A stretch of DNA of 38,930 nucleotides from a virus. Its lineage: Duplodnaviria > Heunggongvirae > Uroviricota > Caudoviricetes. The stretch lies in the IMG/VR virus record IMGVR_UViG_2545824708_000026; one strand, given 5' to 3'. This document shows positions 1 to 38,930 of this stretch, piece by piece. Each line of letters opens with the position of its first letter. Position 1 is the stretch's first letter. The position numbers are program-made.

Positions 1-3000
1 ATGGACAACGACAAAATTGATCAACACAGCGACGAAATTGAAGTTGAGAGCGAAGAAAAAGAGCGCGGCAAAAAAATAGAAATAGATGAAGACCGACTCC
101 CCTCCCGGGCGATGGCAATTCATGAGCATATCCGCCAGGATGGTGAAAAAGAGCTGGAACGCGACGCAATGGCGCTACTGTGGTCAGCCATTGCGGCGGG
201 GCTGTCGATGGGCGCTTCGCTACTGGCAAAAGGGATATTTCATGTCGAACTGGAAGGAGTGCCAGGCAGCTTCTTACTGGAGAATCTCGGTTATACCTTT
301 GGTTTTATTATCGTCATTATGGCCCGCCAGCAATTATTTACCGAAAACACCGTGACTGCGGTACTACCCGTCATGCAAAAACCGACAATGAGCAACGTCG
401 GCTTACTTATGCGATTATGGGGCGTCGTGCTGCTGGGTAATATTCTCGGGACAGGTATTGCTGCATGGGCATTTGAATATATGCCTATCTTCAATGAAGA
501 AACTCGCGATGCATTTGTCAAAATCGGCATGGATGTGATGAAGAACACCCCCAGCGAGATGTTTGCCAACGCGATCATTTCCGGCTGGCTGATCGCCACT
601 ATGGTTTGGATGTTTCCTGCTGCGGGTGCGGCAAAGATTGTGGTGATTATATTGATGACCTGGCTTATTGCACTGGGTGACACCACCCACATCGTTGTCG
701 GTTCTGTTGAAATCCTCTATCTGGTGTTTAACGGCACGCTGCACTGGAGCGATTTCATCTGGCCCTTCGCACTACCTACTTTAGCGGGGAACATCTGCGG
801 CGGCACCTTTATCTTCGCGTTAATGAGTCATGCACAGATTCGTAACGACATGAGCAACAAGCGTAAAGCAGAAGCACGCCAAAAAGCAGAACGTGCGGAA
901 AACATTAAGAAAAATGATAAAAACCCAGCATAAATGGCGAGGGTTTAAGCAATCGAGCGGCAGCGTACTTACCCCGCAGTCCATTAGCGGGTATACTCAT
1001 GCCGCATTGTCCTCTTAGTTAAATGGATATAACGAGCCCCTCCTAAGGGCTAATTGCAGGTTCGATTCCTGCAGGGGACACCATTTATCAGTTCGCTCCC
1101 ATCCGTACCAGTCCGCAAAATCCCCTGAATATCAAGCCTTCCGTAGATTCACAGTTCGTCATGGTTCGCGTCAGATCGTTGACAGCCGCACCCCATGACG
1201 GGTAAAAAGTGGATAAAATAATTTTACCCTCCGGATTTTTACCCATGCTCACCGTTAAGCAGATTGAAGCAGCAAAGCCGAAAGAAAAACCATACCGCCT
1301 TCTCGATGGTAATGGCCTGTACCTTTATGTCCCTGTATCCGGGAAAAAGGTATGGCAGCTTCGCTACAAGATTGACGGTAAGGAGAAAATCCTGACCGTC
1401 GGAAAATATCCACTTATGACTTTGCAGGAGGCAAGGGATAAAGCATGGACTGCGAGGAAAGACATCTCGGTTGGCATCGATCCGGTAAAGGCGAAAAAGG
1501 CTTCGTCTAACAACAATTCCTTTAGCGCCATTTACAAGGAATGGTACGAGCACAAGAAGCAAGTCTGGTCAGTAGGCTATGCAAATGAACTTGCAAAAAT
1601 GTTTGATGACGACATTTTACCTATCATCGGCGGTCTTGAGATTCAGGATATTGAGCCGATGCAACTGCTGGAAGTAATCCGCAGATTTGAAGATCGCGGT
1701 GCAATGGAGCGAGCCAACAAAGCACGCAGAAGATGCGGCGAGGTTTTCCGTTACGCTATTGTCACCGGCAGGGCTAAATATAATCCGGCACCTGACCTTG
1801 CTGACGCCATGAAGGGATACCGCAAGAAGAACTTCCCGTTTCTTCCTGCCGACCAGATCCCGGCATTCAACAAAGCACTTGCAACATTTTCAGGAAGTAT
1901 CGTATCGCTCATTGCGACAAAAGTTTTACGCTACACAGCCCTAAGAACGAAAGAGCTTCGCTCCATGCTATGGAAGAACGTCGATTTTGAAAACAGGATT
2001 ATCACCATCGACGCCAGTGTGATGAAGGGTCGAAAAATTCATGTGGTTCCTATGTCAGACCAGGTGATTGAACTTCTCACTACGCTAAGCTCAATCACTA
2101 AACCAGTGTCAGAGTTTGTTTTTGCCGGGCGCAACGATAAGAAGAAGCCAATTTGCGAGAACGCTGTACTGCTTGTGATCAAACAAATCGGCTATGAAGG
2201 TCTGGAAAGCGGTCACGGATTCAGGCATGAATTCAGCACGATTATGAACGAGCACGAATGGCCTGCTGATGCTATTGAAGTGCAACTTGCACATGCCAAC
2301 GGCGGATCTGTGCGCGGGATTTACAACCATGCTCAGTATCTCGATAAGCGCAGAGAAATGATGCAATGGTGGGCGGACTGGCTTGATGAAAAGGGGGGGG
2401 GATCCGCCTTAACCACTATCGAGTGACATAAAGCCTTGCAATCCAGTGCAAAGCTTTGTGTGTATCAGTTTTGTCTGCCATCACATGGAGATAATTAATC
2501 TATAACGCACATAGATGGTTGATGTTAATAAAAGCGCTGATCATCTCCTTAAGAGTATTTTAAGAGCATTTGAGTTATTAGCATGGAGGCGTATTGCCTC
2601 CATGTTTTTACTACCATGTCGCATCTATGTAGAACGTTGGAGATGTAGTGGTGGACCCTTCAATCGATATTTGTCCTGTTGAAGCATTAATGGTGGCCAT
2701 TGCCATGCCAAATGAAACGCCATCAGCAGTGAACGGTACAGGGACATTTTTGGTTACTTTTGGTCTGCACCACCTCGGAAGCGTTAGAACAGTATTGCCA
2801 TTCGCAAATGAAGTGGCTGCCAGTTTAATATTAATTGAATTGGCAGTTAAACTTGACGGTGCCTGTACTGTTACGTTTGTTCCAGCCCACCATTGAACAG
2901 CTGCTCTTGGCGTGTAATCAACACGCGACCACCAGTCGATAATGGCAGAGCAGATAATTTCCGCATACAGACGATACCCTAACTGGCTTTGGTGAATGTC

Positions 3001-36000: not shown

Positions 36001-38930
36001 CCGTTACAAAGCGAGACTGGGTATTTCCCGGCCTTTCTGTTATCAGAAATCCCCTGAAAGCACAGCGGCTGGCTGAGGAGATAAATAATAAACGGGGGGC
36101 TGTATGCACAAAGCATCTCCTGTTGAGTTAAGAACGTGTATCGAGATGGCACATAGCCTCGCTCAAATTGGAGTCAGGTTTGTGCCAATACCAGTAGAAA
36201 CAGACGAAGAATTTCATACGTTAGCCGCATCCCTTTCACAAAAGCTGGAAATGATGGTGGCGAAAGCAGAAGCAGATGAGAGAGACCAGGTATGACAACC
36301 ACTGAATGCATTTTTCTGGCAGCGGGCTTCATATTCTGTGTGCTTATGCTTGCCGACATGGGGCTTGTTCAATGACACCTCAGCAAGAAAACGCCCTTCG
36401 CAGTATTGCCCGTCAGGCTAATTATGAAATCAAAAAAGCCAGACAGCAGTTTCCGGATAAAAACGTCGATGACATTTGCCGTAGCGTACTGAAAAAGCAC
36501 CGCGAAACGGTAACGCTGATGGGATTCACACCGACTCATTTAAGCCTGGCGATCGGCATGTTAAACGGCGTCTTTAAGGAACGGTGAACATGAAAAACAA
36601 AATCATCATGGAGCTACAGGCTCCTTTTTTATTGTTCGCATTCACCCTCAAGCGTATTAACCAACAATTCAGGGATTAATGGAAGATGGCAGACATCATT
36701 GATTCAGCATCAGAAATTGAAGAATTACAGCGCAACACAGCAATAAAAATGCGCCGCCTGAACCACCAGGCTATATCTGCCACTCATTGTTGTGAGTGTG
36801 GCGATCCCATAGATGAGCGAAGACGCCTGGCCGTTCAGGGTTGTCGGACTTGTGCAAGTTGCCAGCAAGATCTGGAGCTTATCCGCAAACAAAGGGGGAT
36901 TAAGTGATGGCTAACCTGCAACTTGCTGTTAAAAGTGAATACTTCGATGCCATGATTCGCGGAGAGAAAACGGAAGAGTATCGCCTTGTTAATGACTACT
37001 GGAAAAAGCGCCTCGTTAACCGCGAGTATGGCAGTCTGATCATCACGAAGGGGTATCCGAAGCGCGACGATTCCAGCCGCAGAATTGATGTTCCGTATGG
37101 CGGATATGAAATCAAGACAATCACACATCCGCACTTCGGCGATAAACCGGTAAAGGTATACGCGATAAAGGTGAATATCGGCAATGAATAACAATCCTCG
37201 CATTGGCGGGGATTTCTTTTATCTGAAAAGGACAGAATACATGATTAACAATATTGCAAATCAGTCTTCGTTTCCGGCTGCAACAATTGACAGCCAGATG
37301 CTGTTGAAAATGGTTAATGAGGCGCGGAGACTGTGAGGCGAAAAAGAAGTACGCAACAACGACTTCATTGCACGCATCAAAGATGAGCTTGAGGGGGAGG
37401 GTTACGAAATTTTCGTAACCCCCATGGATAAGAAAAAAGGCGGAGCGGATCAGGTGGTTATAGTGATGACCTACAAGCAAGCCCTGCGCGTCGCCGCACG
37501 TGAGTCGAAAGCCGTCCGTCGTTCGCTGGTCGACAAACTTGAATCAATGCAACAGCAGTTGCAACAAAAAACGACCACGAAGAAATCACCGGATGGCCTT
37601 GAAGAATTCCGTAAGGCACGCGCATTGAAAATGACCGTCGACACAATGAAAGACCTCTTCGACTTCCTCCCTCACCTCGCACCGGAAGCTAAACAGGTCG
37701 TTGCCGCCAGCCTGATTAATCCCGTCGTCGGCTTTAGTGCAATCCCTCTTCCGGTCATTGATGAACATCACTACTCTGCGTCGGAGGTTGGCACCATGCT
37801 TGGCATTTCAGCCAACAAGGTAGGGCGCATTGCCAACACCTACATGCTCAAAACAGAAAAGTACGGGAAGTGGTTCATCGACAAATCGGCGCACAGTGAC
37901 AAGCAGGTCGAGACATTTCGCTACAACGAGGCGGGAGTGCACAAGATCGAGGAACTCATCGAAGGAGAACGAAAGGCTGCATGATTTTGACAAGATAGTT
38001 TTCCCCAAATCTGGGGGAAAAGACCGAATGGCGCGGCTTACAGCAAGATAAAGACCACATGATTTGACAAATCCGCATTAACGGGGCTATATTCCGCTTC
38101 ATGGTGCTGAACACACCTTGCAAAGCGGAAACCGCACCCGTCAGTAATGCGGCTTTTTTATGTCCATTTCTCAGATATGGTCGGGTAGCGCGTATACCGA
38201 AAAACAACCGAAAGGTTAAGGATACGGGCCGACTTTGCACGGTGTTCAAGTACCTGACCGCCCTGCTGAACACAGGGCTATCTGAACAAATGCAAAGGAC
38301 ATAAAAATGACCAGTCAACTCATCCCCGTATTCAACGGCACTATCGCCAACGAAACAGCCCTACTCTGCAATGCCCGCGATCTGCATGCTTTTTTAGGCG
38401 TGAAAAAGGTGTTTGCGGCATGGATTACAAATCGCATTTCAGAATACGAATTCATTGAAAATCAAGACTATATTTTGCTTTCCAATTTGGGAAAGCAAAC
38501 ATCTGGTAGAGGCGGTCACAACCGCAAGGATTACCACCTCACCCTCGACACAGCCAAAGAGCTGGCAATGGTCGAGCGCAACGAAAAAGGCCGCCAGATA
38601 CGCCGATACTTCATCGAGTGCGAAAAGAAACTTCGCAGCATGCAACCAGCGCAGCAATTCACAGACGAGGAAATCATCCTCCTCTGCTACATGCAGGTAC
38701 AGATGGAGAAAGCACAGGACATCAGCAAACGCCTGTATCCGATATTGAAGGAACTGAACTCATCATACTCGAGCAAGCTGTATGACATCGCGTTTGAGAC
38801 TTTCTACACGGTGACGAAAAACAGAGACGCACTGCTCAGGGAGGCGACACGACTTGACCAGACAAGCGCCCTTTTCGAACGGGCAAGACCAATGCTGAAA
38901 AGCCTTCGGGCGAGACAATTCGAATTTTAA

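Follow-up and report, generated by a model that had tools for sequence, protein, structure and literature searches.

Probably independent origins of three premature stop codons in a P22-like prophage of Escherichia coli 179100

Three genes of a P22-like prophage, encoding the tailspike, NinH and an anti-repressor-like protein, are each interrupted by a single premature stop, and the TAA, TAG and TGA concerned probably have three independent origins; neither a shared mechanism nor suppression or recoding lies behind them. The first-pass annotation had treated the three stops as one coherent and unusual pattern, a view that is not sustained by their different histories (an old and common TGA, a rare TAG and an error-linked TAA), and the pattern becomes an ordinary one once the origins of the stops are unrelated. 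The circumstance that each stop type occurs exactly once has a chance probability of 3!/27, or about 0.22, on the assumption that the three types are equally likely.

The prophage and its interrupted genes

The window, by which the whole analysed stretch of 38,930 nucleotides is meant, is 100% identical to APZJ01000053.1 (GCA_000356905.1, a 2013 draft of E. coli 179100), where the protein name in the record reads 'tail spike protein [Escherichia coli 179100]', and it represents a P22-like prophage at argW in that draft genome (Table 1). The source contig ends 447 bp beyond the window, without having reached the prophage's right end. The P22-like genes of morphogenesis, lysis, replication and regulation are without exception full-length in the window, and the early arm is about 99% identical to that of lambda-like prophages adjoining mdtA. 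The only tRNAs are Arg(CCT), Thr(TGT) and Asn(GTT), besides which the Rfam search of the window returned only the lambda cIII thermoregulator and sRNA-Xcc1.

Table 1. Coordinates of the features discussed, numbered from the first letter of the window
Feature	Position	Strand	Remarks
argW, tRNA-Arg(CCT)	1009-1083		beside intS
intS integrase	1245..2426	+	adjoins argW; left prophage end
Private G9 run	2393..2401	+	relatives: GGTGGAGTG; consensus-error marker
P22-like tailspike	2611..4851	-	head-binding domain and GDSL/SGNH-like C-terminal part; in-frame TAA
Private C9 run (coding-strand G9)	19203..19211	-	within terL; W98G and E97G; consensus-error marker
ninH (PF06322)	23358..23546	-	in-frame TAG at 23507-23505
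Early arm: replication genes, immunity region, early-left operon	27150..38930	+	carries the TGA allele
Anti-repressor-like gene (phrog_1726)	37241..37984	+	in-frame TGA at 37334-37336

Each of the three stops that had been reported is indeed present in the sequence and in frame. The window was screened for further lesions against ORFs that are free of interruption in about 140 related loci, by which neither another in-frame stop nor a frameshift was revealed in any real reading frame, and deletions and IS elements were likewise not found in the prophage. One further lesion, the loss of the intS stop codon at 2400-2402, had been overlooked in the first-pass annotation.

The TGA and TAG alleles

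In the anti-repressor-like gene, the conversion of codon 32 from CGA to TGA replaces Arg32, the codon being CGA in phage Lyz12581Vzw. The truncated 186-aa product encoded downstream of the stop occurs on 571 contigs, with 953 blocks of the assembly collection holding an index entry for it, the intact 247-aa representative occurring on 992 contigs, and the exact 81-mer that includes the TGA was recovered from 14 of 115 complete genomes. The carriers span several different immunity regions, and the TGA is a standing pseudogene allele found in many independent assemblies and backgrounds. It is thereby shown to be an inherited, widespread pseudogene allele, which arrived with a mosaic early-left module common to hundreds of lambda-like prophages. 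Since the TGA is older than the prophage, it is uninformative on decay in the present case.

The same allele has an annotated counterpart in strain ECO2947, where the gene, located in a lambda-like prophage at mdtA, is flagged with an 'internal stop' by PGAP/RefSeq. The relatives inspected usually carry at least one such prophage pseudogene, but frameshifts, partial genes and IS elements outnumber internal stops among them, whereas the window contains stops only.

The history of the ninH allele is different. At codon 14, CAG has been changed to TAG with replacement of Gln14, while CAG is retained in phage Dewey and in at least 117 IMG/VR loci, TAG being found in one other lineage only. That lineage comprises two assemblies, which makes the TAG a standing allele in part; it was encountered neither in 5,426 complete genomes nor in phage records, and JGI metagenomes and GTDB representatives yielded no further carriers of TAG or TAA. 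At every variable site flanking the TAG, the window matches its closest relative (L156), and recombination from the other TAG lineage (L171) was rejected, as that lineage differs at markers located 29 and 74 bp away. Judged from these flanking markers, the TAG of the window appears to be an event independent of the other TAG lineage, which took place on an L156-type haplotype.

No error signature was found in the second lineage, and the TAG there looks real on this account; the TAG of the window is itself free of such a signature. It is a single C>T substitution on the haplotype that the closest relative has, and in this assembly it may represent either a genuine mutation of recent date or a mistake in the sequence. 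Deamination at Dcm sites (CCWGG) was considered for both C>T changes and rejected, their contexts being TCCAGA and TGCGAG. The gene ninH is dispensable, and plaques, albeit small, were still formed after its precise deletion (PMC7166090). The only stop that hits an essential gene is the tailspike TAA.

The tailspike TAA and the base-calling signature of the draft

The tailspike gene begins with an ATG at 4851 and reaches its natural stop at 2611-2613 on the minus strand, and the premature TAA at 4779-4777 (codon 25, AAA>TAA) removes Lys25 (MTDSINANVVVSMPSQLFTMARSF*AVANGK), a codon that reads AAA in the relatives ACN001 and PEC301. Pfam Head_binding covers residues 4-114, the match to phrog_17606 is full-length, and the product agrees at all residues but K25 with a 746-aa tailspike (P0003) that 17 contigs carry uninterrupted at this argW site. 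On the coding strand the change converts TCTTTTAAAGC into TCTTTTTAAGC, by which a homopolymer is lengthened. It is private in comparison with 9-12 close relatives and has no carrier among 5,426 complete genomes, GTDB representatives and JGI metagenomes, so that a standing allele shared by many independent assemblies was not found.

The sole other carrier is the draft of E. coli 1-176-05_S1_C2, in which the same codon is affected in a different tailspike gene. Its sibling colony C3 has AAA at this codon and an intact tailspike. The two siblings differ at 10 of 20,647 positions. Eight of the differences make up a poly-G tract of C3, and the remaining two are the TAA and a GGGT>GGGG change, both of them in C2, so that all ten differences in 20.6 kb are of the poly-G or run-extension type. 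To judge from their strain-naming scheme, the 179100 and 1-176-05 isolates may come from one sequencing centre.

The draft of 179100, an assembly of low quality, bears a comparable signature. Among the private substitution events at positions 1-15,500, GGT>GGG accounts for 5 of 11 against an expected 1.06% (p = 6e-8), and 7 of 10 private events extend a homopolymer to at least three bases (p = 1.5e-4). The window contains just two G/C runs of seven or more bases, both of which are private; one of them, the G9 run, takes the place of the TGA by which intS is terminated at 2400-2402 in 13 relatives, and thereby lengthens the ORF to 2426. Over a 10 kb flank composed of int and host sequence, five private differences were counted in the source as compared with 0 or 1 in each of the relatives L143-L147, in a gapless comparison from which L148 was left out because an indel had misaligned it.

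The private changes at 1-19,500 (yfdC, intS and the late genes) comprise 13 missense, one nonsense and one stop-loss change versus four synonymous ones, with W>G in terL and V>E in the coat gene among them; the corresponding numbers in the early-left arm are three non-synonymous versus six synonymous. Of all substitutions possible in these genes, about 4.0% give rise to a stop, and with approximately 19 such changes roughly one spurious stop is to be expected. The non-synonymous excess would also fit a prophage recently released from selection.

GGT>GGG is the strongest motif of Illumina systematic error, the sites of which are reproduced from one run to another (Meacham et al. 2011, PMC3295828). 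The present data resemble these errors in the enrichment of private GGT>GGG changes and run extensions, in the recurrence of the changes at the same motif in the other draft and in the existence of a sibling that lacks them. As counter-evidence, the TAA is itself not a GGT>GGG change and extends a T/A run instead (A>T after T4 on the coding strand), the comparison being drawn between consensus sequences. T/A run extension can also be produced by real 'dislocation' mutagenesis at the borders of runs. Because both drafts that carry the TAA show the base-calling signature, the TAA most likely reflects an error of base calling in the consensus, by which a homopolymer was extended. The proposal of sequencing or assembly errors, which the first-pass annotation had listed among several possibilities, is favoured by the evidence for the tailspike TAA.

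Competing readings and their meaning

The reading that all three stops are real and mark a recently immobile prophage at the beginning of its decay, with point mutations preceding deletions and IS elements, is unlikely, despite having several observations in its favour. The TGA is real and the TAG appears to be so elsewhere; the 15 non-synonymous or stop-affecting private changes against four synonymous ones at 1-19,500 bear no mark of purifying selection; and the prophage, with argW and intS at its left and an mdtA-type early arm at its right, may be a hybrid incapable of excision, a comparable inversion hybrid being present in strain Z1322HEC0003. Against decay, however, the private changes are mostly GGT>GGG together with the G9 and C9 tracts, which is the signature of base calling and of no known mutational spectrum of E. 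coli, the same TAA recurs in one of two sibling colonies whose other differences are all of the poly-G type, and the TGA predates the prophage. The argW site and the intS integrase are shared with defective E. coli prophages such as CPS-53 at argW in K-12, but the modules of the window are full-length and devoid of deletions or IS elements. Early-stage domestication keeps a small probability, but the data can be accounted for without it.

Mutational hot spots could have generated the TAA of the tailspike, and perhaps also the TAG of ninH, as real recurrent mutations; an example would be a T4A3 run junction in the conserved head-binding domain, at which the tailspike is silenced in lysogens. 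The identical TAA change in two different tailspike genes speaks for such a process, as does the identical ninH change on two haplotypes between which no shared recombination tract was seen. Nevertheless, it is very improbable, given that no carrier was found among approximately 890 complete genomes with the domain and the 17 contigs with the same tailspike, that poly-G artefacts occur in both of the drafts in which the TAA is present, and that T4A3 is the only tract present, a repeat of the contingency-locus type being absent. Equally small credence is given to the broader scheme in which the TAA and TAG are recurrent real or selected switch-offs in lysogens and the TGA, at a frequency of about one-third, owes its maintenance to a benefit of the split gene.

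Deliberate or selected nonsense alleles, read with the aid of suppressor tRNAs or of reassigned or leaky stops, are the least credible reading, with only the coincidence of one stop per type to recommend it and a probability close to negligible. Three different suppressors would be required, and a prophage-borne suppressor tRNA was rejected as a candidate, there being none among the three tRNAs of the window. Recoding or readthrough was likewise rejected, because no stop type is avoided as a terminator: TGA, TAA and TAG end 31, 20 and 7 genes of the window, respectively, all three serving as ordinary terminators. The suggestion of deliberate or selected nonsense alleles in the first-pass annotation is not supported by these observations, and the name and the flanking core genes point to a wild-type draft isolate. 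Nonsense mutants of lambdoid and P22 phages, such as lambda Sam7 and the P22 gene 9 amber, are grown on suppressor hosts. The window is similar to these conditional-lethal mutants in having single nonsense codons in otherwise intact genes, the tailspike included, but differs from them in that it has no suppressor tRNA, displays all three stop types, stems from a natural isolate and carries one allele that is common in the wild.

Three independent origins remain the preferred reading, which carries a caution: where an old short-read draft shows isolated stops in a prophage that is intact in other respects, they are not to be regarded as biology until they have been checked, and the close relatives and the error signature of the assembly itself are the first checks due before any biological interpretation of such stops. 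If the tailspike stop were true, the lysogen would release spikeless, non-infectious particles, which would constitute a minor, strain-specific finding. The TGA indicates that a nonsense allele can move between prophages on a mosaic module, in agreement with the known mosaicism of the lambdoid phages.

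Presence and setting of the three stops

The three premature stops, one per type, described in the first-pass annotation are indeed present, and each lies in frame relative to intact homologues. Codon 25 of the tailspike gene is TAA, where ACN001 and PEC301 carry AAA (Lys), and the first 123 nt of the gene differ between ACN001 and the window at the codon-25 base only. Codon 14 of ninH is TAG (CAG in phage Dewey), while codon 32 of the anti-repressor-like gene, which matches phrog_1726 over its full length, is TGA (CGA in phage Lyz12581Vzw). When all stop-to-stop ORFs of at least 70 aa from about 140 related loci were translated and aligned to the window, these were the only stops seen in real reading frames and no frameshift was found there; a lesion overlooked earlier was the lost intS stop codon. 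The chance of one stop per type arising from three independent events is about 0.22, and the one-of-each-type pattern thus carries no weight.

Contig APZJ01000053.1 (GCA_000356905.1) matches the window at 100% identity, and "tail spike protein [Escherichia coli 179100]" is the name given to one of its proteins. In this 78,308-bp contig the window occupies record positions 38932-77861, and the contig ends 447 bp beyond it. Among the genes listed in the table, one between the lysis and terminase genes encodes a 159-aa product whose PF11195 domain (E = 6e-22) is Tad2-like (Thoeris anti-defence 2). The two-gene cassette between cI and N, at the rexAB position, weakly matches PDC-M24 (A: E = 1.5e-3; B: E = 6e-7), a candidate defence system in PADLOC, and its second gene has a DUF1828 domain. 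Rfam matches were also observed to the lambda cIII thermoregulator (88 bits) and to sRNA-Xcc1 (69 bits), the latter located between the anti-repressor-like gene and antA.

Features of the window and of the second ninH amber lineage
Feature	Position	Strand	Remark
yfdC	1-933
GGGT>GGGG	201		in yfdC
argW, tRNA-Arg(CCT)	1009-1083
intS	1245-2426	+
GGTGGAGTG>GGGGGGGGG, private G9 run	2393-2401	+	13 relatives have GGTGGAGTG
P22-like late operon	tailspike to lysis genes (to about 22.4 kb)	-
Tailspike gene	2611-4851	-
TAA, TTTTAAA to TTTTTAA	4779-4777	-	tailspike codon 25
GGT>GGG	5778, 14949, 15400; also 19197		19197 on coding strand
Further private missense changes	19174-19207		terL
C9 run (G9 on coding strand)	19203-19211	-	terL, large terminase; W98G and E97G
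Tad2-like gene	20711-21190	-
Phage tRNA-Thr(TGT) and tRNA-Asn(GTT)	22626-22781	-	between Q and holin gene
Q, nin region, lambda-type P, O, cII, cro	beyond the tRNA pair
TAG	23507-23505	-	ninH codon 14
cI	29842-30549	+
Lambda-like early-left operon	after cI, to window end	+
Two-gene cassette	30647-31953	+
cIII thermoregulator match	33824-33882	+
Anti-repressor-like gene	37241-37984
TGA	37334-37336		codon 32
sRNA-Xcc1 match	38179-38267	+
ninH Q14 amber codon, second lineage	L171 13565-13753; L172 9860-10048		related loci; GCA_001265535.1 and GCA_000691105.1

Origins of the TGA and TAG codons

The TGA allele is old and common. Downstream of it starts a 186-aa product that the public assembly collection indexes in 953 blocks. 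This product is found on 571 contigs, compared with 992 carrying the intact 247-aa representative of the cluster, and the 50-aa fragment upstream of the TGA is found on 213 contigs. The exact 81-mer with the TGA is present in 14 of the 115 complete E. coli genomes holding this region, and its carriers have various immunity regions and diverse hosts. In strain ECO2947, where the gene lies in a lambda-like siphovirus prophage adjoining mdtA, RefSeq calls it a pseudogene with an "internal stop"; the TGA was in none of 74 phage records, a set consisting mostly of Stx phages. The early segment (27150-38930) is ~99% identical to such mdtA prophages, which have their own xis/int, indicating that the allele arrived with a mosaic module and is therefore uninformative on the decay of this particular prophage.

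The product of ninH is a Fis-like DNA-binding protein. Its TAG is a rare change: the TAG-specific 51-mer had no match in 5,426 complete genomes, and the wild-type base is kept in every one of the 47 phage records that have this type of ninH. In IMG/VR the CAG 30-mer matches at least 120 stretches, and the TAG 30-mer two overlapping contigs of one genome, GCA_000691105.1, which shares the TAG with GCA_001265535.1 within an identical 10.6-kb stretch. No artefact signature was found among the private differences of this second lineage, so that its TAG looks real; its ninH belongs to a different haplotype, differing from that of the window at five further positions. All variable sites flanking the window TAG agree with L156, the closest relative, which has an intact ninH and is 99.15% identical over 12873-26711, whereas markers 29 and 74 bp from the stop set the second lineage apart; the TAG of the window is therefore an independent single change. 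That change may be a real mutation or an error. The gene is dispensable, and its precise deletion still allows plaques, albeit small ones (PMC7166090).

The tailspike TAA and the error signature

The window tailspike equals an intact 746-aa protein at every residue but codon 25. This intact form sits at the same argW/intS position on 17 contigs; nine of these loci share 99.7-99.9% identity with window 1-5686, and locus L144 reaches 99.87% identity over 1-14854. In the tailspike protein, a P22-type head-binding domain (aa 4-114) is joined to a C-terminal part weakly resembling GDSL/SGNH esterases (aa 451-628; phrog_17606), and acyltransferase and GDSL esterase genes adjoin the tailspike in some relatives; these similarities suggest that it may deacetylate O-antigen instead of cleaving glycan.

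Private differences, that is, bases found in the window and not in its close relatives, are very few relative to loci with the intact tailspike, and their spectrum is peculiar. GGT>GGG accounts for 5 of 11 private events at 1-15,500, where random substitution would give 1.06% (binomial p ~6e-8). Among Illumina systematic errors no motif is stronger than this one, and the sites of such errors are replicable between runs (PMC3295828). Homopolymers are extended to at least 3 bases in 7 of 10 events (15% expected, p = 1.5e-4) and to at least 4 in 4 of 10 (4.9% expected, p = 9e-4). The only two G/C runs of at least 7 in the window are both private, compared with 11 such runs in 1.85 Mb of other loci. 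One of them turns the intS stop (TGA, 2400-2402) into Gly and lengthens the ORF by eight codons, to 2426; an artefact of the consensus is almost certainly the cause. Private differences in the 10 kb int-plus-host flank number 5 in the source versus 0 or 1 in each of five related loci, L143-L147 (L148 was left out owing to an indel that shifted the gapless alignment). Private changes at 1-19,500 (yfdC, intS and late genes) comprise 13 missense, one nonsense and one stop-loss versus 4 synonymous, and those of the early-left arm, 3 non-synonymous versus 6 synonymous, look like ordinary divergence. Since a stop results from ~4.0% of the single substitutions possible in late genes, about 19 private, unselected-looking changes in 19.5 kb would be expected to include about one spurious stop.

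The TAA 30-mer has one further site in IMG/VR, on contig JJMA01000010.1 from E. coli 1-176-05_S1_C2 (GCA_000627905.1). It lies there in another tailspike gene, at the corresponding codon; the head-binding region of that gene is 90.7% identical, and its receptor-binding part is different. The sibling colony C3 has an intact 605-aa tailspike, and the two differ at 10 positions in 20,647 aligned bases. Eight are substitutions within 12 bp of an ejection-protein gene (GGCGCTCGTCTTGCGG to a poly-G tract at about 5022-5033 of L176, the C3 locus on JJLY01000008.1), which is clearly a consensus artefact of a publicly deposited assembly; the other two are GGGT>GGGG and the TAA, both in C2, so that every C2-C3 difference is of artefact type.

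Competing readings and significance

From the private-change signature, the recurrence in C2 and the expectation of about one spurious stop, we judge the TAA most likely to be a consensus error. The TAA extends a run and is not itself a GGT>GGG change; genuine dislocation mutagenesis could give the same result. Real early decay is possible but appears improbable; the prophage might be locked in place, its left end being argW/intS with P22-like late genes but its early arm of a type that elsewhere ends in lambda-type xis/int beside mdtA. Such argW P22-like/lambda-type hybrid ends do occur, as in strain Z1322HEC0003, an inversion hybrid; the combination in the window could represent natural mosaicism, a similar inversion hybrid, or a misjoin at about 26.7-27.2 kb, where the join may be natural or a misassembly. 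High-quality genomes include no carrier of the TAA, which makes a genuine hot spot for mutation at the T4A3 junction unlikely. The TAA was in none of ~890 complete genomes with the head-binding domain, nor was it found in GTDB species representatives or JGI metagenomes.

The proposal of deliberate or suppressed nonsense alleles finds no footing in the window. No suppressor tRNA is encoded, neither tRNA-Thr(TGT) nor tRNA-Asn(GTT) qualifying, which excludes suppression as far as the window allows, and recoding is rejected as all three codons end many window genes (TGA 31, TAA 20, TAG 7). Sequencing error, also raised at first, is probable for the TAA, given the error signature and the C2/C3 comparison; the TGA is an inherited common allele. 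The three stops are no new kind of feature, and what had been taken as one unusual pattern is a coincidence of an inherited pseudogene allele, a rare change in a dispensable gene and a probable sequencing artefact.
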